A DNA stretch of 64,000 nucleotides, taken from IMG/VR virus record IMGVR_UViG_3300028840_006907, positions 224,001 to 288,000 of that record; one strand, written 5' to 3'. The stretch comes from a virus. The translations under genes were made by a program, and so were the position numbers. Positions 12,659 to 37,736 of this stretch are shown here, piece after piece (the first letter of the stretch is position 1; each line of letters opens with the position of its first letter). A model generated the notes under the pieces. That model saw only the letters and a program-made list of their open reading frames with translations. It was not told the DNA's origin and ran no database searches.

Positions 12659-12934
12659 CTATATTTTAGTTAATGGCTCGTCGTATTTTTCAAGAGTTTC
12701 ATCTCTTTTAACCAATTTGCAGTTTACAAATTCAGGCATTCTCGGGTCTTTATTAAATGTATCCACTAATTCCTGAGCATCATCTTTAAATAGACAACAT
12801 GCTTCGTGTGGGTCTTTCACGAAATGTGTCCATGAGTCATTCTCTGAACTGCGAATTTTTTTCATAGCATAAAAAGTACCATTCGGGTGTTGGATTAAAT
12901 AATCCTGGCTAGTATCTGTGTAAAAATCGTTCAT
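12659..12934 (-). CDS. hypothetical protein
   Basis: 91-aa ORF with AAGGCGG 7 nt upstream. First gene behind the conserved extended -10 motif at 12979-12999. Confidence 0.6.
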   Translation of the reverse strand: MNDFYTDTSQDYLIQHPNGTFYAMKKIRSSENDSWTHFVKDPHEACCLFKDDAQELVDTFNKDPRMPEFVNCKLVKRDETLEKYDEPLTKI

Positions 12935-12978
12935 AATATACCGCCTTTTGAATGAGTGTGAATAAGTTAATAGTGAGT

Positions 12979-12999
12979 CCTTTATAAATATTATACCAG
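12979..12999 (-). promoter_or_regulatory. conserved extended -10 promoter motif, family 2 (CTGGTATAATATTTATARAGG)
   Basis: The minus strand reads CTGGTATAATATTTATAAAGG (TGnTATAAT). A 20/21-identical copy lies at 21974-21994. Both sit upstream of minus-strand genes. Confidence 0.6.
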
Positions 13000-13089
13000 T
13001 CTACCCTTGAAACTCTCCCAAAAAAATTTTAATAAAAAATGTGATGGTTTGTAATTCGTTGAGAAGTATAAAATTATAAAACAAAAAAA

Positions 13090-13428
13090 TTAGTCTAAAA
13101 ACTTCTCAATATTTTCTATTGAATTAATGATTTTACCATTTTCTTGTATGAAATAAAATCTTTTTCCACATTTTATACAACTTATTACAGCCATGTTGGG
13201 AACAACTTCTTTAAAATGAAATTGATTATTGATTTGATCTATTACTGATTGCATATTTGAGAAGATGGTATTTCTTTGATATAATGTGAAGACATATTTA
13301 CAGTGAGGGCAGATAATTCGATGAGGATCAACAATTTTTTCCTTATGTTTTTTTATAAGTTCTATGATAAAACTTATAATAATGTAAATACTGAGAAAAG
13401 TCATGGGAAAAATTAATAATTCTTTCAT
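13090..13428 (-). CDS. small membrane-anchored zinc-ribbon protein
   Basis: 112 aa. N-terminal hydrophobic helix (LLIFPMTFLSIYIIISFII), then ICPHCKY...CIKCGK (two CxxC pairs). Start is 1 nt after the upstream stop. Confidence 0.55.
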   Translation of the reverse strand: MKELLIFPMTFLSIYIIISFIIELIKKHKEKIVDPHRIICPHCKYVFTLYQRNTIFSNMQSVIDQINNQFHFKEVVPNMAVISCIKCGKRFYFIQENGKIINSIENIEKFLD

Positions 13429-13429
13429 T

Positions 13430-13813
13430 CTAAAGATAATCCTCTATTCGTTTAGCCTTTTCATTCAGATATAATAGGACTTTTTCATCATCTTTGATTT
13501 TACCTTTATCATCGATATATGAAGTCATCTCAATAGATTTGATAGGTTTAACAGTCCCATGATTGATTTCAATTTTTCTATGTACTCCTTTTACTAACAA
13601 GTCAATTTCTTCTTTCTCATCTGAGTCCCAGTGGTACTCTGGGAATAAATAATTAATCTGATTCTTACCATAACCTTTAAATCGACTCAGGATGAAACTG
13701 TTATCAAATTTGTTAAATATGCCTAAAGTCGAATTTCTTGCCATTATAAGATACAGGCAATTGTGTATACATTTATTTAATGGGACATATGATTTAAATT
13801 TCTCTATGCTCAT
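13430..13813 (-). CDS. hypothetical protein
   Basis: 127-aa ORF directly downstream of the E1-like gene in the same operon. No motif recognised. Confidence 0.55.
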   Translation of the reverse strand: MSIEKFKSYVPLNKCIHNCLYLIMARNSTLGIFNKFDNSFILSRFKGYGKNQINYLFPEYHWDSDEKEEIDLLVKGVHRKIEINHGTVKPIKSIEMTSYIDDKGKIKDDEKVLLYLNEKAKRIEDYL

Positions 13814-13828
13814 TGAGTAATATATTTT

Positions 13829-14470
13829 TTATCTATCAAATTCTGAAATTTTCATATCTTTTAAAGTGATTATATAATTCTTTTTAACACCACTCTCAAT
13901 GAATTTGATTAATGACTCCGATGCTACTGCCACTGCCAGAAGTATAATATTCCTGGCCAATGGGTACTCGCATACATCAGGAGCTATCGTGTCTTTTGGG
14001 ACGGTATAAGATTCGTTCCATATTATTTCCGCGTAATCCTGAGACAGCCCGACATGTAAACAGCTCAAACCATTATCCTTACAATATTGATAAACTAATT
14101 TTCGGCTAATATTATTATCAAAAGAATCGATGATAATATTTGGTTTTTTCAAATATTTACTCACAGTAGTTTTATTAAGTTCTTTACTATTGGCATTCAA
14201 AACAGTTTTGGTTGAAGCATATGCTCTCATTTTCATAGTCGCTACTTTGTAGGTACCTTTTTCATTTTGGTTCCAGATCTGGGTACCATTATTGTGAGGT
14301 TCAATTCTGTCTTTATCGATAATTGTAATTTCTTTGAATCCCTGTCGAACTAAATTATCACAAAGATTTGACCCTATTGCTCCGACACCACAGAGTGTAA
14401 TTGGGGTTGTTGATAATTTACCAACTACTTCTTCAGATCGATACATTCTTTCATGTATTAATAAATCCAT
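13829..14470 (-). CDS. E1-like (ThiF/MoeB-family) adenylation-domain protein
   Basis: 213 aa. Rossmann motif ITLCGVGAIGSNLCDNLVRQGFKEITIIDKDRIEPHNNGTQ (GxGxxG followed by D-x-D...N...Q), then IIDSFDNNISRKL (the DN of ThiF-type folds). A Cys sits in DVCEYPLARN. The usual Arg of N-x-x-R-Q is Thr here. Confidence 0.75.
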   Translation of the reverse strand: MDLLIHERMYRSEEVVGKLSTTPITLCGVGAIGSNLCDNLVRQGFKEITIIDKDRIEPHNNGTQIWNQNEKGTYKVATMKMRAYASTKTVLNANSKELNKTTVSKYLKKPNIIIDSFDNNISRKLVYQYCKDNGLSCLHVGLSQDYAEIIWNESYTVPKDTIAPDVCEYPLARNIILLAVAVASESLIKFIESGVKKNYIITLKDMKISEFDR

Positions 14471-14474
14471 AATA

Positions 14475-14999
14475 TCATCCTATCCTAGCTATAATGCGAT
14501 CTTTTAACAAGACAAAGGGAATTTCAATACAACCTACAATCCGGTCTTTGTCTCTTTTATATAAATAAAATCTTTGTACTTCTGATTTGATTCCACATAA
14601 TAACGGTTTACCCAAAGCTTTGACCCAACCAGTCATAGTTTTATCATCTAAGGATGAAGGTTCCATTATATTACTTGGATGAGTATGATTAAAACCTACT
14701 ATTTTATTTCTGTCTCTGATTACTTTTTCCCAGTCAAAATCAACTGAACCAGGACCACCAGTGGATTCATAGATTAGTCTACCATAAATCCATTTGCAGT
14801 ATTTTTTACCATATATGATCCAACAATTTTCGTTAATTGTTTGTACTACTTCAATAGCTTCTATTGTTAATTTATTTTTATTGTAAATACCTTTATATGT
14901 TCGACCACATTCTGGGCATGGCATTCTTTGTGTTTCATTTTCTGTAATCCAGCATATATATTTTCCGCACTTACATGTAAATTCACTGCTTTCGGGCAT
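14475..14999 (-). CDS. zinc-ribbon + JAB/MPN+ (JAMM) metallopeptidase
   Basis: 174 aa. N-terminal CKCGKY...CPECGR. Exact JAMM signature GFNHTHPSNIMEPSSLD (H-x-H-x7-S-x2-D). Confidence 0.8.
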   Translation of the reverse strand: MPESSEFTCKCGKYICWITENETQRMPCPECGRTYKGIYNKNKLTIEAIEVVQTINENCWIIYGKKYCKWIYGRLIYESTGGPGSVDFDWEKVIRDRNKIVGFNHTHPSNIMEPSSLDDKTMTGWVKALGKPLLCGIKSEVQRFYLYKRDKDRIVGCIEIPFVLLKDRIIARIG

Positions 15000-15025
15000 A
15001 GGGATATATCCTTATTTTAGATTTT

Positions 15026-15925
15026 CTAATACAACGTTCTACTTATTTGATGAGTGCGTTGACCCTCTTTTATTACAGAAATTAATGCTTTTAAATCATA
15101 GTCTTTATCACCAACATGACCTGTTTCATGGTCGGTTAAACAGATGCCTGCAGTAATAACGTGGTGACTTTGATCTTTAGTAACAATAGTATTAAATTTC
15201 TCTCCATCGATTTCATATGTTACATAAATATGATCCGATTTTTCATCACTGCTCAGGTATTTACCTCCGGCAAATTCTATATCACGTTGAATCTTTGTTT
15301 TTTTCTTTTCTTCAAGTGCTCGTTCACGTTCTTCTTTGATTTTTAAATCGATTTTGTATTTTATGTTAAAAGCAATTTTCTCCTCCAATGTCAGACCAGA
15401 GAATTTTAATTTAGATGGGTCTCTGAATTCTTTCAGGGACTCATTAAGATAATCTGTAATCATCGGATCGGCTGACATATCCATTGAATCAAACCAGATA
15501 TTAGCTCCGTCAAATCGGCATAGACATTTAGAAAATGTTGTAACCATATCATCGAAAAGAAGAACTGGGTATAATTCTGATACTTTTAATCCCAGATGAT
15601 TACTCTTTATCGGGATCCCAAGATAAAAATCTTTCTTTTTATGTACTAAAACCATTCTTATCTTTGGTAAATATTTAAGATAAGATTGAATCTCATCTAT
15701 TTCCGCTAAATCTATTGCTTCAGCCCGTTTATTATCAAGTGCTTTGAATTTGTACCATCCCGGTTCTGTTTTCGGGATGTTTAAGTAATGAATAATTCCT
15801 TGAATACGGATAATGATTCGGTCATTATAATACACAGGAGAAATGATAGTCTTTTCAGTCATCATTTCTTCCTGTTTCCCTATTTTATCAATAAGGTTTA
15901 AAATATTATCTTTTCTTACGGTCAA
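15026..15925 (-). CDS. hypothetical protein with C-terminal E2/UBC-like active-site motif
   Basis: 299 aa. TTG start with GAGGAA 5 nt upstream, overlapping the upstream gene by 20 nt. The C-terminus YVTYEIDGEKFNTIVTKDQSHHVITAGICLTDHETG...LKALISVIKEG resembles the UBC motif HPN-x3-G-x-ICLD...SI-x-LL. The N-terminal ~220 aa has no recognised motif. Confidence 0.45.
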   Translation of the reverse strand: MTVRKDNILNLIDKIGKQEEMMTEKTIISPVYYNDRIIIRIQGIIHYLNIPKTEPGWYKFKALDNKRAEAIDLAEIDEIQSYLKYLPKIRMVLVHKKKDFYLGIPIKSNHLGLKVSELYPVLLFDDMVTTFSKCLCRFDGANIWFDSMDMSADPMITDYLNESLKEFRDPSKLKFSGLTLEEKIAFNIKYKIDLKIKEERERALEEKKKTKIQRDIEFAGGKYLSSDEKSDHIYVTYEIDGEKFNTIVTKDQSHHVITAGICLTDHETGHVGDKDYDLKALISVIKEGQRTHQISRTLY

Positions 15926-17462
15926 AAGATTTCCTCACGGGTAAAGGTGTATCCATGATCTCATATAGAAGATCGAGTTTTGATTTTCTGGATAGCAATG
16001 GAATTAATCCAGGCAATCCATAGTAATCGCTACCTTCAGGTTCATAGTAATCGAAAGGTATTCTAGCTTGTTTTAAATACATGCTGAATTCTTTACGACT
16101 CCATGAACTTGGAATGTAAATAATAGTAATAGTAGGAGTCACATTAAATTTTTTAACATAATTATCCCATATCTCAACGAAAAATGGATTATTATTTTCA
16201 CCTTCATCAGTGACCACTATTATCTGTTCTACATAATAGTTTTTTCTAATAAGGTAATCTAATGCTATACCTATGGAAGTCCCACCATTACTTTTTACAG
16301 GTCTGAAAGCCCTTTCCCAGGCAGACATATTCGGTTCATTAGCTGTGATCTCTCTGGCCATTGTATCAAAAGTAATAGCATAGAGAGGAGCTTCTGTAGC
16401 ACCTGAAATAAGAGCCGCAACATTTTTTCCGACTTCGATGGCTTGAGTCATAGAACCTGATTTATCGATAAAGACTGCAGTAGGTACTTTTATAACACCT
16501 TTCTTTTTAATTTGCTGATCTGCAATTTCATCGAGGATCTTTTGAGATTCCTCATTTTTGATCCGACCTGTTTTCTTTGCTTCTTTGGATTTTAAAGCTG
16601 ATACATTTTTAGCTTTTTTAGCTTTTTCCAATTTAGCCGTAATCAATGTTTTTGTATCCTCATTGTCCATGGCACCACGTTCTTCTAGGGAAGCATAGTT
16701 ATTAATAACTTCCTGTGGAGACATAGCATTGATTAGAGCAATCAGAATTGTAGGAGTGATTTGATCAACCAAACCTACAGCCACCGTATAAGGTACTTTA
16801 TGTTCTATAATCAGCTTTGCCACTTCAGTCGGATTATCAGCTTGTGCTATTTTTTCGAAAACATTTAATTTACTGTCCGTAGGACGTTCATTTCCGAAAA
16901 GAATCTTCTGAGCACGTTCACTAGGTGCTATACGAAGAGTAGCATATAATCCTTTAAGATCTTTTGGACTTTTTAGGGCAATAGCATCAAAAAGATCGTT
17001 GTTGGTTTCAATATATTGAAGAAATTTCTCAACATCCCTTTTAAAGGCAGTAGGAATATTTTTGTAAAGACCTACATTTTTTTCTTCAATTTTTACTTCA
17101 TCGATCATTTTTTTCTTCATTTTTATTTTTTTGCCCGTTTTATTTCTGATCTTTATTTTTTTACCTTTAATAAAACCGACCACACGTCTTTTAAGATATA
17201 CAGGTATTTCCCTGAAGAGGGCTAGCCCAACTTCACGGTTGTCAAGAAATTCATCAACAATAAGTGAACCGATGAATACTTCTTTATGATCCCGAATATC
17301 TCCATTCTTGTAGTACCAGCTTCCAAGGTGGGCATAAAACAGCGGATCTGCTTTTTGTAATTCAAGATGGGTATTTTTTAATTTATCTAGGTCCCGGTGA
17401 GGGCAACTCAGAAATGAGTTAAGCATGTTAACTCTGATATCATTTTCGTTAGCTTGGTTCAT
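15906..17462 (-). CDS. Ro60/TROVE-like protein with C-terminal vWA (MIDAS) domain
   Basis: 518 aa with AAGGAGG upstream. The C-terminal ~190 aa parallels the Ro60 vWA block by block: VFIDKSGSM (DxSxS), AITFDT, NGGTSIGIAL, QIIVVTDEGEN. The N-terminal ~330 aa is helical with ADPLFYAHLGSWYYKNGDIRDHKEVFIGSLIV, similar to the TROVE N-terminal signature. Contains a Lys-rich insert (GKKIKIRNKTGKKIKMKKK). Confidence 0.6.
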   Translation of the reverse strand: MNQANENDIRVNMLNSFLSCPHRDLDKLKNTHLELQKADPLFYAHLGSWYYKNGDIRDHKEVFIGSLIVDEFLDNREVGLALFREIPVYLKRRVVGFIKGKKIKIRNKTGKKIKMKKKMIDEVKIEEKNVGLYKNIPTAFKRDVEKFLQYIETNNDLFDAIALKSPKDLKGLYATLRIAPSERAQKILFGNERPTDSKLNVFEKIAQADNPTEVAKLIIEHKVPYTVAVGLVDQITPTILIALINAMSPQEVINNYASLEERGAMDNEDTKTLITAKLEKAKKAKNVSALKSKEAKKTGRIKNEESQKILDEIADQQIKKKGVIKVPTAVFIDKSGSMTQAIEVGKNVAALISGATEAPLYAITFDTMAREITANEPNMSAWERAFRPVKSNGGTSIGIALDYLIRKNYYVEQIIVVTDEGENNNPFFVEIWDNYVKKFNVTPTITIIYIPSSWSRKEFSMYLKQARIPFDYYEPEGSDYYGLPGLIPLLSRKSKLDLLYEIMDTPLPVRKSFDRKKR

Positions 17463-17483
17463 AATATCTCATCCTCCTTATGT

Positions 17484-17750
17484 TCAGGTTTCAATTTTTC
17501 CGAAAGTAGCATTTGGTCTAACTGTAATGTTACCATTTTTATGGTGTTCAACAACTAATTCAGCAAATTCTGATGCTGGTCTATCATAATGATCTACTAA
17601 AGCCAATTTAATTTGTTCACCAGTTATATTATCCGATGTGATCTCGGTTCCTGGTTCAATCCCGAGTTGTTCCCATCTGTCTTCTGGGAAAAGATCTTTG
17701 AGATTAATATCTTCAGTTTGACCATCATACATTATATGGACTTCACTCAT
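17484..17750 (-). CDS. small acidic protein, candidate ubiquitin-like (beta-grasp) modifier
   Basis: Start revised to the ATG at 17750, with GGAGG 5 nt upstream; the 109-aa version in the track lacks an RBS. 88 aa: MSEVHIMYDGQTEDINL...ITVRPNATFGKIET. First gene of the E2/JAB/E1 operon, with a Gly 4 residues from the C-terminus. Confidence 0.6.
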   Translation of the reverse strand: MSEVHIMYDGQTEDINLKDLFPEDRWEQLGIEPGTEITSDNITGEQIKLALVDHYDRPASEFAELVVEHHKNGNITVRPNATFGKIET

Positions 17751-17790
17751 ATGAGCCTCCTTGTAATAAGTTAAAAAAAGAGTCCCGTAT

Positions 17791-17807
17791 ATTATACGAC
17801 ACGAGAT
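17791..17807 (-). promoter_or_regulatory. conserved promoter motif, family 1 (CTYCRTGTCGTATAAT)
   Basis: The minus strand reads ATCTCGTGTCGTATAAT, about 40 nt upstream of the 17750 start. The same TGTCGTATAAT core recurs at 18956-18972 and 61807-61823 on the plus strand. Confidence 0.6.
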
Positions 17808-17888
17808 TAACATTTCATTAAGTAAAAAATTGGGTAGAATATAAATTCTTGTGTGTCATCATGGTAAATAACTTTTTTAAAAAAATTA

Positions 17889-17917
17889 TTGACACACTTA
17901 AAATTTATGGTTATATT
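17889..17917 (+). promoter_or_regulatory. sigma70-type promoter of the RNA operon
   Basis: TTGACA (17889-17894), a 17-nt spacer, then TATATT (17912-17917). The predicted start near 17924 coincides with the first base of the RNA1 closing helix. Confidence 0.7.
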
Positions 17918-17923
17918 ATTGAC

Positions 17924-18063
17924 AGTTCTGCACTCTAACTTTTGATGCTTACATAGAGAAAATAGCTCAGTTGGTCAGAGCGCGAGATTTAGGTTCTTGA
18001 AGTCTTCGGTTCAATTCCGAATTTTCTTACCATAAAATTAGCACCTTCAACTTGTGCAGAACT
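17924..18063 (+). ncRNA. structured RNA unit 1: shared closing module enclosing a complete tRNA
   Basis: Perfect 10-bp terminal helix AGTTCTGCAC (17924-33) / GTGCAGAACT (18054-63). Family module just inside it: 5' TCTAACTTTTGATGCTTACA and 3' GCACCTTCAACTT. The cargo is the tRNA at 17956-18032. Confidence 0.6.
17956..18032 (+). tRNA. tRNA, anticodon UAG (Leu by the standard table), class-I shape, CCA encoded
   Basis: Hand-folded cloverleaf. Acceptor GAGAAAA/TTTTCTT (G1-U72). D-arm GCTC-AGTTGGTCA-GAGC. Anticodon arm CGAGA-TTTAGGT-TCTTG (U33, anticodon TAG at 17990-92, G37). 5-nt variable loop AAGTC. T-arm TTCGG-TTCAATT-CCGAA, A73, then CCA. Confidence 0.85.
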
Positions 18064-18081
18064 ACTTAAACCAAGAAATAA

Positions 18082-18199
18082 AAGTCAGACATTCTAATTA
18101 TTAGGGCGTACATGGCGTTAAAACCATGCTTCCTGCAGAAATCAGGAAGCAATCTCTGGGCCAAGGCTCAGGGGCGCACTGATGACTTATGTCTGACTT
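18082..18199 (+). ncRNA. structured RNA unit 2: shared closing module enclosing three hairpins
   Basis: 11-bp terminal helix AAGTCAGACAT / ATGTCTGACTT. Module 5' TCTAATTATTAGGGCGTACA and 3' GCGCACTGATGACTT. Interior hairpins: CATGG-cgttaaaa-CCATG, CTTCCTG-cagaaat-CAGGAAG, and CTGGG-ccaagg-CTCAG. Confidence 0.55.
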
Positions 18200-18248
18200 A
18201 ATATAGATTGTAAAGTGTTGTAAAATAAATTTGATCTTTGAAAATTAT

Positions 18249-18430
18249 AGGATAATGCCTTCTAACCTGTTGGGCTTACAAATTTTACTGGTTCGACTCC
18301 AGGTTCCGCCTCTCGGTCCTTTTGTAAAGATTGTAAAGGATCAGGAGGCGGAACAAGCCGGGTGGTCTGGCGATTGAATGCAAATCAATTTATTTGAAAT
18401 TAACGCTCTTTTAACTTGGGCATTTATCCT
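18249..18430 (+). ncRNA. structured RNA unit 3: closing module + circularly permuted tRNA-like core (Y-RNA/YrlA-like)
   Basis: Terminal helix AGGATAATGCC / GGGCATTTATCCT (one bulge), followed by TTTTTT. Order inside: T-arm CTGG-TTCGACT-CCAG (18288-302); a 20-bp closed acceptor-like hairpin (18303-354); AA; D-arm GCC-GGGTGGTCT-GGC; and hairpin ATTGA-ATGCAAA-TCAAT. Confidence 0.6.
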
Positions 18431-18477
18431 TTTTTATAGTAATTTATAATTTTATATAAAGTGATCTTTGAAAATAT

Positions 18478-18660
18478 GAGGTAAGTGCCTCCTAACATAA
18501 CGGGCTTACAAATTAATAGGGTTCAACTCCCTGTTCCCCCGCCTAAGTCTTTGTCATATAATGATTAAGATTTGGGCGGGGGAACGAGCTGGGTGGTTCA
18601 GCAATCAACGTTTAATTGATGAAAAACATTTTTACGCTCTTTTAACTTAGGCACTTACTC
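18478..18660 (+). ncRNA. structured RNA unit 4: closing module + circularly permuted tRNA-like core
   Basis: Terminal helix GAGGTAAGTGCC / GGCACTTACTC, followed by TTTTT. T-arm AGGG-TTCAACT-CCCT. Closed acceptor-like hairpin GTTCCCCCGCC...GGCGGGGGAAC. D-arm GCTG-GGTGGTT-CAGC. Hairpin ATCAA-CGTTTAA-TTGAT. Confidence 0.6.
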
Positions 18661-18681
18661 TTTTTATTAAATTGAAATTAC

Positions 18682-18858
18682 AAGGAGCACCTTCTAACCT
18701 GTTGGGCTTACAAGTTATTCGGGGTTCAAATCCCTGTCCCGGCACTAGGTTGATTCCCTAAAAGTCAACCCAGTGCCGGGATAGCCAAATTGGTAAAGGC
18801 GACTATATTGAACATAGTAAACAAAACTATCTACGCTCTTTTAACTTGGGTGCTCTTT
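18682..18858 (+). ncRNA. structured RNA unit 5: closing module + near-perfect circularly permuted tRNA
   Basis: Terminal helix AAGGAGCACC / GGTGCTCTTT. T-arm CGGGG-TTCAAAT-CCCTG (18720-36). Acceptor 3' strand TCCCGGC + A73, a linker hairpin, then acceptor 5' strand GCCGGGA (18775-81). U8 A9, D-arm GCCA-AATTGGTAA-AGGC, and anticodon arm ACTAT-ATTGAAC-ATAGT (UGA at 18809-11). Confidence 0.6.
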
Positions 18859-18899
18859 ATATATTTCTCGCAAAAGGAATACAGGGTGAAACAGGAGTA

Positions 18900-18940
18900 T
18901 AGGGATTAAGAAGAAATTTTTGATCCCTATTTTATTTTTT
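18900..18940 (+). terminator. intrinsic terminator closing the RNA operon
   Basis: Stem TAGGGAT (18900-06) / ATCCCTA (18923-29), then TTTTATTTTTT. The loop is rather large (16 nt). Confidence 0.5.
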
Positions 18941-18955
18941 CCCGGATTTTCCCTA

Positions 18956-18972
18956 CCTTCATGTCGTATAAT
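18956..18972 (+). promoter_or_regulatory. conserved promoter motif, family 1
   Basis: CCTTCATGTCGTATAAT, 44 nt upstream of the 19016 start. 16 of 17 positions match the copy at 61807-61823. Confidence 0.6.
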
Positions 18973-19015
18973 TATTAGATAAAGATTTTCTAAACATTTT
19001 ATTAGGTAATTAATT

Positions 19016-21643
19016 ATGACATGTAAAATTTGTAAGAGTAATCTTTCTTATACTTTTGATAAATTTCCAGCTTATAAGTTCTGTCCTTGTTGTAACCTTT
19101 ATTTTCAAGAAGAATTTCCACCAAAGATATTTGAAGGTCCTGATGAGAATAACGGGCATGGTCCCGGTACAGGTCATTTAATGTCTGAGGATGAAAAGGA
19201 AATAAATAAAAATTTCGCTAATGTTCTCTATGATATGTTTATTCCTCGAACTCTTCTAGATATAGGTTGTAAATACCCCTATTTTATTAGTGTGTTAAAA
19301 GATAAAATAGATGTATTAGGAATTGATCCTATTTCAGAGATCTTGAAATATGGAGAAGAATTGGGTGTCTCTGTAATTCGTGATGATTTTGAAGATATGA
19401 ATATTACTCCTTTAAAAAATAAATTCGATTTAATAACTTTGATACATACTTTCGAACATTTTTATAGCCCAATAGAGACCATGAAAAAGATAATCGAATG
19501 TCTTACTCATAGAGGAGTGCTTTTAATAAGAATTCCAAACATAGATATTGAAGGTATAGAAAGAGATTTTACTGATCATCATGTTCAAATCCATCCCTTT
19601 ATATATTCAACACAAGCAATGTATCGAATCGCTCAAAAATTTGATTGTGAAATTTTTAGGGTCGATGATATTATTGGATATGGCCAGAGCGATTTTTATT
19701 TAAGGAAGAAAAGGGACCATCTTTCTTTATCGGTTTGTATGATTGTAAAAGATGAGGAAAAGAATGTTTCTGATTGTTTGGAGAGTATAAAAGATGTAGC
19801 TGATGAAATCATAGTTGTGGATACCGGATCTATAGATAATACCAAAGAAATAGTATCCAAATATACAACAAAGATATATGACTTTAAATGGATTGATGAC
19901 TTTTCTGCTGCTAGAAATCACTCTTTAAGTAAGGCAACGGGTGACTTTATTTTATGGCTTGATGCTGATGATATTGTAGAAAATCCAGAAAAGATTAATG
20001 AAATATTAAAAAATGATGATGCTAAGATATTTAATTTTAATATTAAATATGGAAATGATGTCTTTAGTCAGGCTAGACTATTTAGGAATTTTTATAATAT
20101 AAAATTTTCTGGTAGAGTTCATGAATATCCTGTAATCGATAATTTATATATAAAAGATACTGAAGTTAATGTAATTCATAAAACCGAAAAACATTCAACA
20201 GAAAACCGTTCTGATAGAAATCTCCGTCTCCTTAAAAAAGAATACGAAGATAATCCGAACAATTCCCGGACACTTTTTTACCTGGCAAGTGCTTATAAAG
20301 AACTTACTCGTTGGGATGAAGCTATAGATTTTTATCGAAAATATTTAACTATTTCTATCTGGAAAGATGAGAGATGGATGGCTCAAAAGAATATTGGATG
20401 TATTCTTTCCTGGAATAGAAAATATGAAGAAGCCATTGAAGAATTGAAGAAGGCTATTGAAATAGATGATCGATGGGCTGAGTCATATTATTATATAGCT
20501 GAGTGTTATTTCTATTTAAAAAACCCTCAAGAATGTATAAACTGGTCTTTAAAAGCTATTGAGAAAAAGATGCCCGAATCACCTCTTTGGAAAGAGATCC
20601 CAATTTATAATGACGCACCATACCGTTATCTCTTTGCTTCTTATGGTTCTTTAGGTGATTTTGAGAAAGCATTGCATTATTGTAAGATAGCATCAGAAAA
20701 AGTTCCTGAGGATGAATGGCTTAAGGAAAGAGTCACTTATTTTGAGAATGCTACAAAAGGAGTTCCTGTTGTAGTCGAATGTAATCGGTGGGGGGCTTTG
20801 GGTGATTGTTTAATGACAACTGCATCTTTACGTGCCATTAAGCATAAGATTCCGGGTTGTTTTATAAGATATGTCACCCATCCTAGTATGTTCCCGATCC
20901 TTGAAGGGAATAAGTTTATAGATGAACTTGTATCAGAATCTAAATCTGAGAACTCAGAAAAGGTTTATTTCTCATATCCTGACAGTAAATCTCCTATTAA
21001 AGATGAAGGTTATCCTAATAAGCCTTTGAATCGCCATTTAGTACGTATATTCGCAGAATGTGCTGGTTTAAAAGAATTTGATAATCTAAAGATGGAGTGT
21101 ACTCTTACAAAAGATGAGGAGAAATCAGGTCAGTCATTGAGATCTCGATTTAAGAAATATGTGACTCTTCATATCCATTCGGGTTGGTCTGAGTATAAGG
21201 ATTGGTATAATGATCGTTGGGAGACTGTTGTAGATGAGTTATTTAAAAGAGGTTACGTGGTTGTTCAGCTAGGCCATAAAGATGAGGGTCTCTTAGTTGG
21301 TACTGTGGATTATAGAGGCCATACTATAAAAGAAGCTATCTCTGCAATAAAATATGCTGATATTCATTTAGGAGTGGATTCATTTACAAACCATGCCTCG
21401 GCTACTGTGGGGACTCCTGCAGTTATTTTATTTGGGTCTACTTCTCCAACCGGTTCCGGGTATGATCAGAATATAAACCTTTATAAAGATTTGAAATGTC
21501 AGCCTTGTTATAAAGAATATGCATGGTCTAAGGATAATAAAGGAAAATGTCCTTATAATAAACTATGTATGGATCAGATCCTGGTTCAGGAAGTATTAGA
21601 CGGTTTTATGAGATTAGAAAAAAAATTATTTATTGATGGATAA
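19016..21643 (+). CDS. multidomain glycan-modifying enzyme (Zn-ribbon, SAM-methyltransferase-like, GT2, TPR, GT9/heptosyltransferase-like)
   Basis: 875 aa. CKICKS...CPCCN. Methyltransferase motif I-like LLDIGCKYPYF. GT2 motifs LSVCMIVKDEEKNV...IIVVDTGSIDNT and WLDADD. TPR-like LFYLASAYKELTRWDEAIDFYRKYL. GT9-like NRWGALGDCLMTTASLRAIKHKIPG and GVDSFTNHAS. Confidence 0.75.
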   Translation: MTCKICKSNLSYTFDKFPAYKFCPCCNLYFQEEFPPKIFEGPDENNGHGPGTGHLMSEDEKEINKNFANVLYDMFIPRTLLDIGCKYPYFISVLKDKIDVLGIDPISEILKYGEELGVSVIRDDFEDMNITPLKNKFDLITLIHTFEHFYSPIETMKKIIECLTHRGVLLIRIPNIDIEGIERDFTDHHVQIHPFIYSTQAMYRIAQKFDCEIFRVDDIIGYGQSDFYLRKKRDHLSLSVCMIVKDEEKNVSDCLESIKDVADEIIVVDTGSIDNTKEIVSKYTTKIYDFKWIDDFSAARNHSLSKATGDFILWLDADDIVENPEKINEILKNDDAKIFNFNIKYGNDVFSQARLFRNFYNIKFSGRVHEYPVIDNLYIKDTEVNVIHKTEKHSTENRSDRNLRLLKKEYEDNPNNSRTLFYLASAYKELTRWDEAIDFYRKYLTISIWKDERWMAQKNIGCILSWNRKYEEAIEELKKAIEIDDRWAESYYYIAECYFYLKNPQECINWSLKAIEKKMPESPLWKEIPIYNDAPYRYLFASYGSLGDFEKALHYCKIASEKVPEDEWLKERVTYFENATKGVPVVVECNRWGALGDCLMTTASLRAIKHKIPGCFIRYVTHPSMFPILEGNKFIDELVSESKSENSEKVYFSYPDSKSPIKDEGYPNKPLNRHLVRIFAECAGLKEFDNLKMECTLTKDEEKSGQSLRSRFKKYVTLHIHSGWSEYKDWYNDRWETVVDELFKRGYVVVQLGHKDEGLLVGTVDYRGHTIKEAISAIKYADIHLGVDSFTNHASATVGTPAVILFGSTSPTGSGYDQNINLYKDLKCQPCYKEYAWSKDNKGKCPYNKLCMDQILVQEVLDGFMRLEKKLFIDG

Positions 21644-21940
21644 ACGCCATGTAGCAATTATTCCTTTTGGGTTCTCTATAGATACGTTTGTAGTAAATTG
21701 AGAAAGGAGTTCAAAAGGAGTGGTACAAATTACTTCTTTAAGTTCATGCTTATCTATAAGGACTGGTCCATAAGCTACGAAAAAGCAATTAATTATCAAT
21801 TCTATTAGATCAGTTGAGTTAAATTCCTCGATCCATTCTCTCATAAAATCACACCAGGCTTGAGGTGTTGGGGTATCGTCATGTTTTTCAAAGAGTTTTG
21901 CTAATTCCGTATAATCTTGATTTGTGTAAGTGATGCTCAT
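21626..21940 (-). CDS. hypothetical protein
   Basis: 104-aa ORF with AAAGGA RBS, behind the family 2 promoter motif. Its 3' end overlaps the convergent 19016 gene by 18 nt. Confidence 0.55.
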   Translation of the reverse strand: MSITYTNQDYTELAKLFEKHDDTPTPQAWCDFMREWIEEFNSTDLIELIINCFFVAYGPVLIDKHELKEVICTTPFELLSQFTTNVSIENPKGIIATWRLSINK

Positions 21941-21973
21941 CTGGTATTCCTTTCTTTACGTCTTCAATTCTAA

Positions 21974-21994
21974 CCTCTATAAATATTATACCAG
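21974..21994 (-). promoter_or_regulatory. conserved extended -10 promoter motif, family 2
   Basis: The minus strand reads CTGGTATAATATTTATAGAGG, 34 nt upstream of the 21940 start. Confidence 0.6.
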
Positions 21995-22250
21995 GAATTG
22001 GGTGAAAAACTGCCAAAATAATTTCGGCCTTTTTGTAACCTCATAGATATCAATAGATTACCACAGATAAAAATTTATCCTATTATTTATATCTTATTAT
22101 CCATTTTAATAATGTTTTAATACTATCTAGCTCCAATAAAATCTTCTATTCTAATAAATGTTCTTAGTGGGACATATCCGAGGATCAGAATTTACTTTAA
22201 GTGCTACCTTAGGTAAGATGATCTAACCGGCAAAAAGCTAAGGAGTTACG

Positions 22251-25200
22251 ATGGCCAAGACAAAAAGGAAATGGATTGAGCTGGATTGGTACAATCCCAA
22301 TGCCTTACGTGCACAAGACATACCTTACGATCAAACCGAAAGTGTAAAAGATGCTATAGATAGAGCTGCCTCTGGAGTTCTCGGTCCGACGGGGACCACG
22401 GGTTCGACCGGTTCAACAGGTTCGACGGGTCCAACGGGTCCGACGGGAGCCACGGGTGCGACGGGAGCAGGAATCCAGGGTGAAACCGGAGTCGCTGGAG
22501 TTCAAGGAGCTACCGGAACCGGTGGTGGTGGAGATACTGGTGTCCAGGGTGAGACCGGTTTACCCGGAGCCACAGGAATCCAAGGTACAACCGGTATCCA
22601 GGGAACTACAGGAATCCAAGGTGAAACTGGAATCCAGGGACATACAGGTACAGTTGGAACAACGGGTGTTCAAGGAGAAACCGGTTCTCAGGGTACTACT
22701 GGAATCCAGGGAGAAACTGGAGTAAAAGGTGAAACTGGTATTCAAGGTCAAACCGGTATAGCTGGTGGAGCAGGATTTCCAGGAGCAACTGGAGTCCAGG
22801 GCGAAACCGGAGTCCAAGGAACTACTGGGGTTCAAGGGGAAACCGGGGTTCAAGGAACCACAGGAGTAGCCGGAGCAACCGGAGTCCAGGGAACTACTGG
22901 CGTCCAGGGAACTACTGGCATCCAAGGTGAAACGGGTGTCCAGGGAGATACTGGAGTTGGTGCCACTGGAATCCAAGGAACCACAGGTATCCAGGGTCAA
23001 ACCGGTGTTCAAGGTATCACCGGAGCTTATGGTGGTCCTCCTGGAGAAACTGGTGTCAAGGGAGAAACCGGAGTACAGGGGGCTACTGGAATCCAAGGTC
23101 TTCAAGGATTGCAGGGAACCAAAGGTGAGACCGGAACACAAGGTATTCAAGGCCAGACCGGAGTTCAGGGAGAAACTGGAGTTCAAGGGCAGACTGGTAC
23201 AGGTGCTCCAGGAGCCACTGGAGTTCAAGGGCAGACTGGTATCCAGGGAACCACTGGAATAGGTTTAGGTTCAACAGGAGTAGCGGGAGCAACTGGAATT
23301 CAAGGTACTACCGGAGTTCAAGGTAGGACTGGAGTCCAAGGATTTACCGGAGCTGCTGGTTTAGGTGAAACTGGTATCCAAGGAGCTACCGGAGTCCAGG
23401 GTGCCACAGGTATTCAAGGGACTACTGGTGCAGGAATCCAAGGAGCCACAGGTATTAGTGGTGACACGGGAGTTCAAGGAGCCACAGGAATTAGAGGTAC
23501 TACTGGTGCAGGAATCCAAGGAGCCACGGGGGTTCAGGGCATTCAAGGTCAAACTGGAGCCCAGGGCGAAACCGGAGTCCAGGGTGAAACCGGAATAGAA
23601 GGTTCTCAATTTGCAGGATTTAATTATAAAGCAAAAACAGACAATCAATCTGATACAGATCCTGGTATAGGAAATTTAAAGTGGAGTGCTGTAGCTCAAG
23701 TCACATCTAGTGAGCTTTATGTGGATGATGCTGACGTTAATTCTACGGATCTCAGTAATTTTTACCTCACTTTAAAAGCTGCCGACTCTTTACGTATTGT
23801 TCGTATGGAAGATCCTTCTCAGTATCAGATTTTTAATATAACAAACGTTACTGATAGAACCGGATGGTTCCGTTTATCTGTTACACCTGTTGTTTCAGGT
23901 GGTTCGACTTTTAGTTTAAATGATAATATCATACTGATATTTAGTATATCAGGTCCTAGAGGTCAGACCGGAGTAAAAGGTGAGACTGGAATTCAAGGAA
24001 CTACAGGTGTTGCCGGAGCCACAGGAGTCCAAGGTCAAACTGGAATTCAGGGTCAAACTGGAATCCAGGGCATACAGGGCCAGACTGGAATTCAAGGACA
24101 AACTGGTATTCAAGGTCAAACAGGAATCCAAGGTCAGACAGGTGTTGGCGCTCAGGGTGCTACTGGTGTAGCTGGTCAAACCGGGGTCCAGGGAGAAACT
24201 GGGATACAAGGTCAGACTGGTGCAGGAATCCAGGGAACTACTGGTGTTCAAGGCGTTCAAGGATTAACAGGTGTGCAAGGCCAGACAGGTGCCGGAATCC
24301 AAGGTGAAACCGGAGTCCAGGGTACTCAAGGTTTAACCGGTATACAGGGTCAGACAGGTGCTGGAATCCAAGGAGAGACTGGTGTTCAGGGAAACACTGG
24401 GGCTTTTGGTGGTCCTCCCGGAGAAACTGGTGTTCAGGGAGAAACTGGTGCACAAGGTTTAACTGGAGTCCAAGGTCAAACCGGAGCAGGTATTCAGGGA
24501 GCCACTGGTATTCAAGGAGTTACTGGAGTTCAAGGCCAAACCGGTGCTGGTATTCAAGGAGTCACTGGAATCCAAGGACAAACTGGTATACAGGGTCAGA
24601 CAGGAGTAGCAGGTCAGACCGGAGTCCAAGGAATACAAGGCCAGACAGGAGTAGCAGGTCAGACCGGAGTTCAAGGAATTCAAGGACAAACCGGAATAGC
24701 AGGTCAGACCGGAGTTCAGGGTATACAAGGTCAAACTGGAATTCAAGGGCAGACTGGTGCTGGAATCCAAGGTACAACTGGAGTAGCCGGAGCTACAGGA
24801 GTTCAGGGAATTCAAGGTCAAACAGGAGCTGGAATCCAAGGTACAACTGGAGTCCAGGGAACTACAGGAGTTCAAGGTGAAACTGGTACTGGTATTCAGG
24901 GAGAAACTGGTACGCAAGGTATTCAGGGTCAAACCGGAATTCAGGGACAGACTGGGATTCAAGGTAATACTGGTGTAAAAGGTGAAACCGGAGTTCAGGG
25001 TTTTCCAGGTCCTCAGGGTACGAAAGGTGATACTGGTGCTCAAGGTATTCAAGGTGAGACAGGAACTCAAGGAATTCAGGGCCAAACTGGAGTAGCTGGA
25101 GAAACTGGAGTTCAGGGTCAAACGGGTACTCAAGGAATTCAGGGTCAGACTGGTGTAGCTGGTGCAACTGGTGCGGGAATTCAAGGTCAAACTGGTGTTC

Positions 25201-28200
25201 AAGGAATCCAAGGTCAGACTGGAATCCAGGGGCAAACTGGAGTCCAGGGTGAAACAGGTATAGAAGGATCTTTATGGGCTGGATTTAGTTATAATGCCAA
25301 GACTGATGATCAGTCAGATACAGATCCTGGTACAGGGAATCTTAAATGGAGTACTGTTGCTCAGGTAAATGCGGGTGAACTTTATGTAGATGATACTGAT
25401 CAATATTCCATAGATTTAAGTAATTTTTATCTTACGTTAAAGGCTGGTGATTCTCTTCGAATAATTCGTCAGGAAGACCCTTCTCAATATCAAATTTATA
25501 ATATAACAAATGTTACAGATAGAACAGGTTGGTTCCGTCTTAGTGTGACCTATGTTACTTCAGGTGGATCTACTTTCAGTCTTAATGATAATATTATTCT
25601 TGTTTTTGTTAAAGCTGGAATTCAAGGTCAGACAGGTGCCCAAGGTATTCAAGGTCAAACAGGAGTCCAAGGAATTCAAGGACAGACTGGAGTTCAAGGA
25701 GCCACAGGTACCCAAGGAATTCAGGGGCCACAAGGCCAGATAGGTCTTCAAGGTACTACTGGGGTCCAAGGTGAAACCGGAGTCCAGGGCACACAAGGTC
25801 AGACGGGTATCCAGGGTACAACAGGTGCCGGGATTCAGGGTCAAACCGGAGTCCAGGGAATTCAGGGTCAAACCGGTATTCAAGGTCAAACAGGAGCAGG
25901 TATTCAGGGAGCTACTGGTATTGCTGGTATAGATGGTCAGACTGGAATCCAGGGTGAAACCGGAATTCAGGGCCAAACTGGAGCTGGTATTCAGGGAGCT
26001 ACTGGTATTGCTGGTATAGATGGTCAGACTGGAATCCAGGGTGAAACCGGAATTCAGGGCCAAACTGGAGCTGGAATCCAAGGTGAAACCGGTATCCAAG
26101 GAATTCAAGGATTAACAGGTATTCAAGGTACAACTGGTGCTGGCATTCAGGGAGAAACTGGAGTACAGGGTACACAAGGTCAAACAGGTGTTCAAGGTCA
26201 AACAGGTGCCGGAATTCAGGGTGAAACCGGAGTCCAGGGCACACAAGGTCAAACCGGTATTCAGGGTCAAACTGGCGCTGGTATCCAAGGTGTGACAGGA
26301 ATTCAAGGAATACAAGGACAAACTGGTATCCAGGGTCAAACGGGTGCCGGAATCCAAGGAGAAACCGGAGTCCAGGGAGAAACAGGAATACAAGGTCAGA
26401 CTGGTGCAGGAATCCAGGGAACTACTGGTGTTCAAGGCGTCCAAGGATTAACAGGTGTCCAGGGTCAAACTGGTGCTGGTATTCAAGGTGAAACCGGAGT
26501 CCAGGGTACTCAAGGTTTAACTGGTATACAGGGTCAGACAGGTGCTGGCATTCAGGGAGAAACCGGGGTCCAGGGAGAAACTGGAATACAAGGTCAGACT
26601 GGTGCAGGGATTCAGGGTGTGACAGGAATTCAAGGTCAAACTGGAGTTCAGGGAACTACAGGAATCCAGGGTCAAACAGGTGTTGGGATCCAGGGTGTGA
26701 CTGGAGTTCAAGGAATTCAAGGTCAAACCGGTATTCAAGGTCAAACCGGTATTCAAGGTGAAACCGGAGTGTCTGGAGCTACAGGTATTCAGGGAATTCA
26801 AGGTCAAACCGGAATCCAGGGTCAGACCGGAGTCCAAGGAGAAACAGGTGTACAAGGTTCTACAGGTGTATTAGGTGATCCTAATTGGATAGATTTTGTA
26901 CCTCAAGCATCTGCTCCTAGTCATCAGGAAGCTCGCCTTTTTTATGATTCAACAGACCATTCATTGAGTTATTACAATGAAGAATCTGATGTTACCCTGA
27001 ATTTAGGTCGTGAATTATATATCAGAGTGTATAATGCAACAGTTTCAACAATAACTAACGGTCAAGTAGTTTATGTCACAGGTGTTGCTGCAGGATACCC
27101 CACAATAGATTTAGCAGATGGTAGTGATTTAACTAAGACTAATAATATAGGAGTGGCTACTCATAATATAGAAGCCTCAACATTTGGTTATATCACATTA
27201 TTTGGATTAGTAAGAGATATTAATACTAATGCTTTCAGTGCTGGTGATGAAGTTTGGTTAAGTGAAAGTACTCCAGGTGGTTACCAGTCTTTTGCAGGTA
27301 CATATGCCGTTAAAATAGGTTATGTTGTTGTTTCAGATACATTAAATGGTTCAATAATGGTAGCTATGGGTGATACGGAAGCTACTATAGCTGGATTGAA
27401 TGATGTAAATCTTACTAGTATCTCTGATGGTCAGTATTTACAATGGGACTCGGATTCTACTAAATGGGTTAATGTTTCTGAAAGTCCTCAAGGTGATACA
27501 GGTATCCAAGGAGCAACTGGAGTTCAAGGAATTCAAGGAACTACAGGAGTTCAAGGAGCAACTGGAGTTCAAGGTATTCAAGGAACCACAGGAATTCAAG
27601 GACAGACCGGAGTTCAGGGTGAAACCGGAATTCAAGGAACTACAGGAGTCCAGGGAGAAACTGGTACTGCAGGAATAGACGGTCAGACAGGAGTTCAGGG
27701 TGAAACCGGTATTGCAGGAATAGATGGTCAGACAGGAGTTCAAGGTACTACCGGAGTTCAGGGAATTCAAGGAACTACAGGAATTCAGGGAGAAACCGGT
27801 ACTGCAGGAATAGACGGTCAGACAGGAGTTCAAGGTGAAACTGGAACTGCAGGAATAGACGGTCAGACAGGAGTTCAAGGTACTACCGGAGTTCAAGGAA
27901 CCACTGGAATTCAAGGTACTACCGGAATTCAGGGAACTACTGGAATTCAGGGAGAAACCGGTACTGCAGGAATAGACGGTCAGACAGGAGTCCAAGGTAC
28001 TACTGGGATTCAGGGGGAAACCGGAGTCCAAGGTACCACAGGGATTCAGGGAGAAACCGGAGTCCAAGGTACTACTGGAATTCAGGGAGAAACTGGTGTT
28101 TTTGGGATTGTCAATTATATCGATTATGAACCTCAAGATACAGTTCCTTCTCATTTAGAAGGTCGTACCTTTTATGACAGTACAGATCATTCTTTAAGTT

Positions 28201-34878: not shown

Positions 34879-34881
34879 TAA

Positions 34882-37173: not shown

Positions 37174-37220
37174 TTATAAAATTTACATATAAGATCTATA
37201 TAACATATAAGGAGGTTCAA

Positions 37221-37736
37221 ATGTATAAAACAGCATTAGTATGTGGAGTCTGGGACAAATTGCATGAAGGGCATAAAAATATAATTAAATATTCTATAGA
37301 AAATTCTGAATTACTGAAAATTTTTGTATTAGAAATTAATATACATGATAGACATGAAGAGCCTTTTATACCTTATGAAGAAAGAAAAAAAACAGTCGAA
37401 AATTATGTCCTTTCTTTAGGGGCAAGAGATAAGGTACAAATAATAGGAAAAAAAGATGCTACGGAAGTTATGGTATTGGATGAATTGAGAACTGTAGATT
37501 GCGCCTTTGCTTGTGCTAAAGATAAAAATCAGCAAATTTTAGAAATGATAAAAATAACTCAAGATAGAGTTGCTAAATTAGAAGGCCCTGATGGACGTAA
37601 GCCATTTGTTATGGAATGGGTAGATCCTGTGAAAAATGATGAAGGAAAAATAATCTCTTCAAGTAAATACAGGAAAAAAAGCCGTTTAGAAAAAGAAAAG
37701 AGAGTAAATTCTTCAGGTGGATATGGTCGATTTTAA
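37221..37736 (+). CDS. cytidylyltransferase-family nucleotidyltransferase
   Basis: 171 aa with AAGGAGG RBS. N-terminal ALVCGVWDKLHEGHKNIIKYS carries the (H/T)xGH signature of the cytidylyltransferase / PPAT / TagD fold. Confidence 0.6.
   Translation: MYKTALVCGVWDKLHEGHKNIIKYSIENSELLKIFVLEINIHDRHEEPFIPYEERKKTVENYVLSLGARDKVQIIGKKDATEVMVLDELRTVDCAFACAKDKNQQILEMIKITQDRVAKLEGPDGRKPFVMEWVDPVKNDEGKIISSSKYRKKSRLEKEKRVNSSGGYGRF

Follow-up and report, generated by a model that had tools for sequence, protein, structure and literature searches.

Multidomain glycosyltransferases as candidate modifiers of collagen-like fibres in a huge phage related to Bacillus phage G

A 64,000-nucleotide stretch of viral DNA (positions 224,001 to 288,000 of the IMG/VR record IMGVR_UViG_3300028840_006907, hereafter the window) encodes two large multidomain enzymes of 875 and 693 amino acids (aa), in each of which a family 2 glycosyltransferase (GT2) domain is followed by tetratricopeptide repeats (TPR), together with two giant collagen-like proteins of 3078 and 2337 aa. 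The best-supported reading, and a fairly probable one on the strength of the predicted proteins, is that the phage enzymes O-glycosylate the collagen-like fibres. This is favoured because the nearest relatives of solved structure act on proteins or peptides and not on polysaccharides or lipopolysaccharide (LPS), because the sgtA-bclA3 pair of Clostridioides difficile is a characterised precedent with the same module and gene arrangement, and because GT2-TPR genes repeatedly adjoin genes for collagen-like proteins with G-X-T triplets in diverse viral contigs and in Bacillota.

Glycosylation and methylation of its own fibres by this phage had been proposed in an earlier reading of the window made from the letters alone (the sequence-only reading). 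The proposal now gains from the homology to GmaR and SunS, the sgtA-bclA3 precedent and the recurrent gene adjacency, but has to be given up as regards the cytidylyltransferase that it included.

Domain structure of the 875-aa enzyme

The 875-aa protein consists of a zinc ribbon, a class I S-adenosylmethionine (SAM)-dependent methyltransferase, GT2, TPR and a family 9 glycosyltransferase (GT9) domain (Table 1), and its conservation was assessed across 22 full-length homologues. This composition, given already by the sequence-only reading, is confirmed by Pfam matches for the methyltransferase, GT2, TPR and GT9 domains, with E-values well outside chance, and by the ribbon cysteines in the sequence. 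Each of the ribbon's four cysteines (C3, C6, C23 and C26) is conserved to 90% or more, and residues D82, G84, D104 and D138 of the methyltransferase are conserved as well.

Within the central module, Pfam places Glycos_transf_2 at residues 239-359 (1.5e-20) and several TPR families (TPR_1/TPR_2) at about residues 400-530, with E-values down to 5.8e-15. The predicted metal-binding motif DADD occupies residues 316-319, of which D316, D318 and D319 are invariant, and the nucleotide-binding stretch VVDTGSxD is invariant too. The best non-designed relatives among solved structures in the PDB are GmaR (6.3e-28) and SunS (4.5e-19), and the best NCBIfam match is the SunS family (3.9e-22), with 78.7 bits against a cut-off of 350. 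No membrane or hydrophobic segments were predicted in the 875-aa or the 693-aa enzyme. Since hydrophobic segments are lacking and the nearest solved relatives are GmaR and SunS, both enzymes are predicted to be soluble and to belong to a clade acting on proteins or peptides.

Some homologues of the 875-aa protein (P0018, P0019, P0022 and P0023) are longer, at 1160-1440 aa, and carry a GT1-type domain and sulfotransferase domains in addition, a hint of sulfated glycans in the related phages that encode them.

GT9 domain and its cysteine finger

The C-terminal part of the 875-aa protein matches Glyco_transf_9 at residues 690-834 (Pfam, 6.5e-10), and both the GALGD597 motif with the predicted catalytic Asp and K728 are invariant among the homologues. 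A profile of residues 572-875 matched, in the PDB, the Veillonella GT9 structure 3tov (1.5e-12), TibC (2.6e-5) and WaaC/WaaF (about 1e-5). The AlphaFold (AF2) model of the domain has a pLDDT of 85, and in a Foldseek search its best match was again 3tov (4.6e-15), followed by TibC (1.5e-11) and WaaF (4.5e-10). A single-sequence PDB search with the C-lobe returned noise only, and the matches came from profile searches.

A finger of four cysteines (C828, C831, C845 and C851), all invariant, is inserted in the C-lobe. When the sequences are aligned residue by residue, C828, C831 and C845 match C339, C342 and C358 of TibC, which are three of the four ligands of its iron finger, and the fourth cysteine, C851, sits just past the TibC-aligned stretch. 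The iron finger of TibC is required for formation of the oligomer and for binding of the repetitive protein substrate. Alignments with LPS heptosyltransferases end before the insertion. Judged by these comparisons, the GT9 domain is nevertheless not a member of the BAHT (TibC/AAH) family, because the N-terminal beta-barrel of that family is missing (TPR helices precede the GT9 domain, and the model opens directly with a Rossmann lobe), other residues stand at the positions of R286 and W305, with which TibC binds heptose, and the score against TIGR04414, the BAHT family model, is 22.8 bits, far under the cut-off of 200.

Collagen-like proteins encoded in the window

The gene for the 875-aa enzyme ends 608 bp upstream of the gene for the 3078-aa collagen-like protein, on the same strand. 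About 1750 residues of this protein lie within G-X-Y runs, with Thr (257) or Gln (238) at the Y position. The 2337-aa protein consists of a BNR-like propeller, a G-X-T/Q tract at about residues 1210-1570 and repeated C-terminal domains, and has 51 Thr and 50 Gln at Y, so that Thr and Gln are near-exclusive there in both giants. The Pfam Collagen matches, together with Y positions that are almost always Thr or Gln, bear out the earlier description of these proteins as Thr/Gln-rich collagen-like fibres.

The length of the larger giant varies across assemblies of one phage, being 3078 aa in the window, 2980 aa, or 581 + 2404 aa; in two other assemblies the gene lies at 13236-22472 (L001) and 13236-22178 (L002). 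Either variation in repeat length or assembly collapse would account for this.

Downstream of the 3078-aa gene lie four genes for proteins with Laminin_G_3 (ConA-like lectin) domains, which are likely fibre or adhesin components. They are also possible further acceptors or glycan binders.

Linkage of GT2-TPR and collagen-like genes

A scan of viral contigs with the single 875-aa sequence gave no match, and an alignment was used as the query instead. The viral sample comprised the best 80 of 448 confirmed contig loci encoding GT2-TPR relatives. Collagen-like open reading frames (ORFs) were sought in all six frames as those with at least 45 residues in runs of at least 6 G-X-Y triplets. Such ORFs of the G-X-T type were found within 10 kb of the enzyme at 30 of the 80 loci, 36 ORFs in total. 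Their distance to the enzyme ORF was within 300 bp in 14 cases and within 1 kb in 18, all but one (35/36) were on the strand of the enzyme, and the fraction of Thr at Y was 0.3-0.98 in nearly all of them. The 30 collagen-linked enzymes form 21 clusters at 50% identity, and their loci span 30-66% GC. The selection of loci was not biased towards collagen, because the query contained no collagen sequence. Among 80 control loci fetched with the neighbouring helicase, 5 were collagen-positive (Fisher p = 2e-6 for the comparison with the GT2-TPR loci); four of these five are close relatives of the window phage, and 1 of 75 remained positive after the five closest-relative loci were dropped.

The linkage extends to bacteria. 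In a sample of the 80 closest bacterial relatives, one genome per species, a G-X-T collagen-like ORF was present within 6 kb at 39 loci, usually abutting the enzyme gene. These relatives belong mostly to Bacillus, Paenibacillus, Clostridium and other Bacillota, spore-formers for the most part, and the proteins, about 353 aa long, align over the whole phage module, those encoded beside collagen-like genes being 30-36% identical over their full length to the GT2-TPR module of the 875-aa enzyme.

Among relatives of the 875-aa enzyme itself, a 62%-identical one (L006) has the same arrangement of enzyme gene, small antisense ORF and homologous collagen giant with Thr or Gln at Y, and a 58%-identical one, without the methyltransferase, has genes for T/Q-type collagen giants on both sides. 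A 35%-identical relative has no collagen gene within 10 kb. Fusions of methyltransferase and GT-B (GT4) domains to GT2-TPR also occur in collagen-adjacent enzymes of other phages.

The pair is also present in a cultured phage, Tunturiibacter phage Tunturi_5 (PP885688.1, 309 kb; L252). Its GT2-TPR protein gp35 (8016-9119, + strand) is encoded beside gp36, annotated as a 'nucleotidyltransferase', and 3.7 kb from the annotated tail fibre gp29 (12831-16715, - strand), which is collagen-like with G-P-T and G-A-T triplets. Four paralogous genes for proteins of about 285 aa lie between gp35 and gp29.

Comparison with characterised systems

SgtA of C. difficile is a 358-aa protein with a GT-A domain (aa 1-260) and four TPR repeats (262-358), and its gene is located directly upstream of bclA3. 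With UDP-N-acetylglucosamine (UDP-GlcNAc) and Mn2+, it attaches beta-O-GlcNAc to Thr of BclA3 collagen-repeat peptides, and the spore-surface glycoprotein signal is lost in the sgtA mutant. The phage enzymes resemble it in the order of GT2 and TPR, in the DxD motif and in being predicted to be soluble; co-orientation with an adjoining G-X-T-rich collagen gene holds for the 875-aa enzyme only and not for the 693-aa gene. They differ from SgtA in that the phage module is part of an 875-aa fusion with a Zn-ribbon methyltransferase and GT9, encoded by a huge phage of lytic type. The 3078-aa protein is similar to BclA-type collagens in its long uninterrupted G-X-Y tracts with Thr at Y, but in the phage the presumed acceptors, 2337 and 3078 aa long, are fibres of the virion in which Thr alternates with Gln.

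GmaR of Listeria and SunS of Bacillus likewise combine a glycosyltransferase with TPR and act on protein or peptide substrates. GmaR, however, transfers GlcNAc onto flagellin and carries an antirepressor domain, and SunS S-glycosylates a bacteriocin of the SPbeta prophage; these contexts were not found in the phage window. With the TibC/AAH enzymes, whose substrates are repetitive proteins, the phage GT9 domain shares the GT9-type GT-B fold and a Cys4 finger at the same place of the C-lobe, and it differs from them in lacking the beta-barrel, R286/W305 and an autotransporter substrate.

Mimivirus encodes its own glycosylation machinery, including that for methylated sugars, which decorates the surface fibrils; it is a eukaryotic virus with enzyme families unlike those of the phage. 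Virion glycosylation in phages is documented so far for mycobacteriophages (Freeman et al. 2023, as cited in PMC12619734), whose glycosyltransferases modify the C-termini of their own capsid and tail-tube subunits and not collagen-like fibres.

The 693-aa enzyme and downstream glycan genes

Pfam matches also uphold the GT2, TPR and methyltransferase domains that the sequence-only reading had assigned to the 693-aa protein, and the additional C-terminal domain is present too. GT2 is located at residues 6-136 (2.4e-17) and contains the motif DGDD, the TPR_1/TPR_2 repeats lie at about residues 170-335, and the methyltransferase extends over about residues 360-512, with a Methyltransf_11 match at 392-440 (1.3e-9). 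The remaining part is a conserved end domain of about 130 aa. Among solved structures the best non-designed matches of the GT2-TPR part are GmaR (4.5e-18) and SunS (1e-12); its SunS NCBIfam score is 49.3 bits against the cut-off of 350. The GT2-TPR modules of the two enzymes are paralogues, with 34% identity (8e-47).

The 693-aa family is far larger than the 875-aa family, with 402 proteins at E <= 1e-10. Most of the best 120 of these are full-length, and many are encoded on contigs of 200-590 kb. In the window, about 8 kb separates the gene from the major head gene upstream of it. The target of the 693-aa enzyme is less certain, because no collagen gene adjoins it and the family is more widespread in huge phages, and it may be another virion protein.

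The end domain is modelled as Rossmann-like, and its best TM-scores, 0.64-0.73 at weak E-values, were obtained with individual lobes of SenB and MGD1, both GT-B enzymes. A full GT4 occupies the same position in longer 693-aa homologues and in collagen-adjacent phage enzymes. On these two grounds the end domain is probably the remnant N-lobe of a GT4-type GT-B enzyme. The PDB matches of the end-domain profile were designed TIM barrels only and were dismissed as alpha/beta repeat bias. A conserved 249-aa gene downstream was considered as the missing GT-B C-lobe and rejected; it neither resembles the GT4 part of P0191, a longer 693-aa homologue, nor matches a Pfam family.

Beyond the window, the 693-aa gene is followed (L003, 12092-22082) by genes for this 249-aa partner, a 994-aa GT2+GT4+methyltransferase protein, a thymidylate kinase and a UDP-glucose/GDP-mannose dehydrogenase. 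With the 994-aa protein and the dehydrogenase encoded just downstream, the glycosylation toolkit is larger than had been seen from the window alone.

In a related 512-kb phage (L004, 7310-22070), the surroundings of the 693-aa homologue include a fusion of phosphopantetheine adenylyltransferase (PPAT) with CoaE and a cluster of KdsA-like, DHDPS/NeuB-like, CTP_transf_3, GT29 sialyltransferase-like, SPASM and methyltransferase genes. This cluster suggests synthesis and transfer of a nonulosonic or 3-deoxy-manno-octulosonic acid (Kdo)-type sugar.

A nucleotidyltransferase among the lectin-like genes

A gene for a 171-aa protein located among the four Laminin_G_3 genes had been taken for a cytidylyltransferase that activates sugars or polyols. 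Its position in the array and its superfamily hold: it matches PF01467 (2.1e-7; 31.6 bits, cut-off 21) and contains the motifs HEGH (15-18) and ISSSKYR (144-150). The proposed activity does not. The best NCBIfam match is the archaeal-type PPAT (8.9e-9), and TagD was matched at 0.12 only (PDB). A word-indexed homologue search with the protein found itself only, and when 1.84 billion representatives were searched exhaustively with HMMER, only 12 weak relatives were retrieved; PPAT was the best match for all 10 that were scanned, and five of them pass the PPAT cut-off. Since the relatives of this orphan are of the archaeal PPAT type and not sugar or polyol cytidylyltransferases, sugar activation is unsupported, and the protein, going by its homologues, is probably outside the glycosylation system. 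It is unrelated to the PPAT-CoaE fusion of the related huge phage.

Proposed mechanism

In the proposed scheme both multi-module enzymes would be cytoplasmic and most likely made along with the virion proteins. The TPR repeats would hold the unfolded or folding collagen-like chain in the manner of SgtA, and the metal-dependent GT-A domain would use a UDP-sugar to place the first sugar, most likely an N-acetylhexosamine such as GlcNAc, on Thr at the Y position of G-X-T triplets in the 3078-aa and 2337-aa fibre proteins. The GT9 domain, steadied by its TibC-like Cys4 metal finger, may add a further sugar or a second type of O-glycan, and the Zn-ribbon methyltransferase may O-methylate the sugar as a cap. 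Modification would take place in the cytoplasm, before or during triple-helix folding. The 693-aa paralogue and the 994-aa GT2+GT4+methyltransferase enzyme would extend the glycan or serve other virion proteins.

Evidence against fibre glycosylation and alternative explanations

Several observations weigh against the glycosylation of the fibres. The phage is uncultured and known from its genes alone, and the acceptor, sugars, order of steps and timing are inferred. No collagen ORF was present within 10 kb at 50 of the 80 viral GT2-TPR loci, and in two relatives (L092 and L093) collagen genes are found close to the helicase, with no enzyme within 10 kb; the adjacency could in part come from both genes being placed in variable regions for tail fibres. 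The 693-aa gene is without a collagen neighbour in three genomes. SgtA is likened to the phage enzymes by its published architecture, and sequence homology runs to GmaR, SunS and SgtA-like proteins of Clostridium and Bacillus. In the GT9 domain, R286 of TibC is replaced by Ala and W305 by an invariant His, so that two of four heptose-binding residues are lost. Finally, the GT2-TPR module is found in the head region of some phages. In the uncultured podovirus MW202524.1 (L250, 1656-11978) a 762-aa multidomain GT2-TPR gene directly follows the major capsid gene; after it come two further genes for glycosyltransferases, two for methyltransferases and a 'has synthase', and collagen genes are absent. 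This gene set is a candidate capsid-glycosylation cassette. In Dickeya phage JA11 the module sits in the head module.

The GT2-TPR family thus clearly has other targets in some phages. It is rather unlikely that the enzymes of the window glycosylate proteins other than the fibres, such as capsid, decoration, tail or Laminin_G proteins or a host protein, e.g. flagellin. The head-region modules of MW202524.1 and JA11 and the loci without collagen point to such targets, as do the position of the 693-aa gene past the major head gene, away from collagen genes, and the activity on flagellin of GmaR, the closest solved relative. Against this, the collagen giant is the immediate neighbour of the 875-aa gene, the pairing recurs in many lineages with Thr-rich Y positions, and no flagellin-like gene was seen near the enzyme genes.

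Remodelling of host envelope glycans (LPS core or O-antigen, teichoic acids, capsule), for instance to block superinfection, is the conventional reading, as glycosyltransferases in the fibre regions of myophages are interpreted in the literature as modifying the host surface. GT9 is best known from LPS heptosyltransferases (RfaQ 1.2e-9, HepIII 7.3e-9), GT2 is common in polysaccharide synthesis, and relatives carry database names such as 'beta-1,4-glycosyltransferase' and 'ADP-heptose:LPS heptosyltransferase'. For the window this explanation is nonetheless improbable: the enzymes have no membrane segments, TPR is fused to the glycosyltransferase, and proteins or peptides are the substrates of the closest homologues with solved structures. 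Moreover, the TibC-type Cys finger of the GT9 domain is absent from the aligned LPS heptosyltransferases, the linkage with collagen exists also in bacteria, where the function is known, and the annotated neighbours showed no flippase, polymerase or Gtr-type gene.

Synthesis of a glycocin, an S- or O-glycosylated bacteriocin, by analogy with SunS and sublancin on the SPbeta prophage, is very improbable. SunS is the top NCBIfam family and is matched among structures, and yolJ of SPbeta is among the phage matches, but the scores of both enzymes are far under the SunS cut-off and their genes stand in a block of virion genes. The neighbours expected of a glycocin (precursor peptide, ABC transporter/peptidase, thiol-disulfide oxidoreductase) were not found among the scanned proteins, small ORFs not having been searched exhaustively.

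Glycosylation of hypermodified bases of the phage DNA, evading restriction, is hardly credible either: phage glycosyltransferases often glycosylate DNA bases, as reviewed in the literature, and nucleotide-metabolism genes such as the downstream thymidylate kinase are near, but the TPR domains and the homology to protein glycosyltransferases argue otherwise, the architecture and neighbourhood fit SgtA-BclA, and no hydroxymethylase was seen in the window.

Genomic context of the enzymes

The window is phage DNA, with a gene for the large terminase at 1144-3036. Both the 875-aa and the 693-aa proteins have exact copies on public contigs of 388-469 kb, among them a 469,617-bp contig with a protein identical to the 875-aa enzyme; from these copies it follows that the source is a huge phage, of about 470 kb. 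It is related to Bacillus phage G, with which its head protein shares 39.9% identity; the corresponding values are 76.6% for the uncultured 485-kb phage LR745208.1 and 49.5% for Tunturi_5. No DNA-level match to isolated phages was found by megablast with 20 kb of the window. LR745208.1 is without either enzyme and without similar collagen DNA, and its gene order is not that of the window, which makes it uninformative on synteny. From position 19016 to the end of the window nearly all genes are on the + strand, and both enzyme genes are located inside this rightward block, together with the virion genes.

Table 1. Positions in the window of the two enzymes, their domains, the proposed acceptors and other annotated genes
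Feature	Coordinates	Strand	Evidence
875-aa five-module enzyme (Zn-ribbon, methyltransferase, GT2, TPR, GT9)	19016-21643	+	intact ORF
Zinc ribbon, CxxC...CxxC, residues 1-30	19016-19105	+	sequence
Class I SAM-methyltransferase domain, residues 77-213	19244-19654	+	Pfam Methyltransf_23 1.8e-15
SgtA/GmaR/SunS-like GT2 + TPR module, residues 231-575	19706-20740	+	PDB, NCBIfam
GT9-family GT-B domain, residues 580-875	20753-21640	+	profile, AF2 model, Foldseek
Cys4 finger (C828, C831, C845, C851) inserted in GT9 C-lobe	21497-21568	+	
3078-aa collagen-like fibre protein; proposed main acceptor	22251-31487	+	Pfam Collagen 6.3e-225
2337-aa collagen-like protein; proposed second acceptor	3040-10053	+	Pfam Collagen 2.1e-47
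693-aa enzyme (GT2, TPR, methyltransferase, Rossmann-like end domain)	61866-63947	+	
C-terminal alpha/beta domain of 693-aa protein (about residues 565-693)	63558-63944	+	AF2 pLDDT 91
Antisense ORF, 104 aa, between enzyme and collagen genes	21626-21940	-	no Pfam match
Four Laminin_G_3 (ConA-like lectin) proteins	31499-38959	+	PHROG 'virion structural protein' matches
171-aa HxGH/ISSSxYR nucleotidyltransferase	37221-37736	+	PF01467 CTP_transf_like
Portal, 1117 aa	43131-46484	+	
Head protease	49421-50989		
Major head protein	52565-53437		
UvrD-type helicase	10276-12027	-	

The portal gene carries an intein with a LAGLIDADG homing endonuclease (about residues 202-650), and the portal of relatives is uninterrupted. 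In other phages, homologues of both glycosyltransferases are split by inteins as well (P0011, P0128, P0130, P0136, P0147 and L034).

On the leftward strand, a ThiF-like E1 enzyme (1.9e-23) adjoins a weak Prok-JAB protein (13829-14999), and the pair, which is kept beside the helicase in relatives, could be a ubiquitin-like conjugation or counter-defence module. The gene at 15906-17462 on the same strand encodes a 518-aa protein without a Pfam match that contains a von Willebrand factor A (vWA)-like metal ion-dependent adhesion site (MIDAS) motif, VFIDKSGSM, and is conserved in relatives (525 aa in L006).

The leftward operon is separated from the 875-aa enzyme gene by an ORF-poor gap of 1.2 kb (17814-19015). 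The gap contains a tRNA-Leu gene with anticodon UAG (17956-18032, + strand), the only feature found there in an Rfam search, and a strong terminator-like hairpin at 18899-18930.

Implications

The enzyme chemistry is most likely of a known, SgtA-like kind. The apparently new points are that the setting is viral, that methyltransferase, GT2, TPR and GT9 are fused in one protein bearing a TibC-like finger, and that the pairing extends so widely across phages. No report tying phage collagen-like fibres to phage-encoded glycosyltransferases was found in the literature, where phage glycosyltransferases of fibre regions are usually taken as modifiers of the host surface or of DNA. It is suggested tentatively that G-X-T fibres glycosylated by fused enzymes may be widespread and so far unrecognised in tailed phages whose genomes measure about 20 to about 500 kb and whose hosts span 30-66% GC.

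The idea is directly testable, because the cultured relative Tunturi_5 carries the pair, and the gene pair would also provide a compact toolkit with which to glycosylate designed collagen peptides. If fibre glycosylation is correct, a large class of phage 'tail fibre' genes would encode glycoproteins, and receptor binding, protease resistance and antigenicity of the fibres would depend on phage-encoded sugars, with consequences for how host range is predicted, for phage therapy and for how hundreds of viral glycosyltransferase genes are annotated. The modified fibres would then be the viral equivalent of a spore's glycosylated BclA nap and would influence adsorption, stability or the escape from host and immune recognition.

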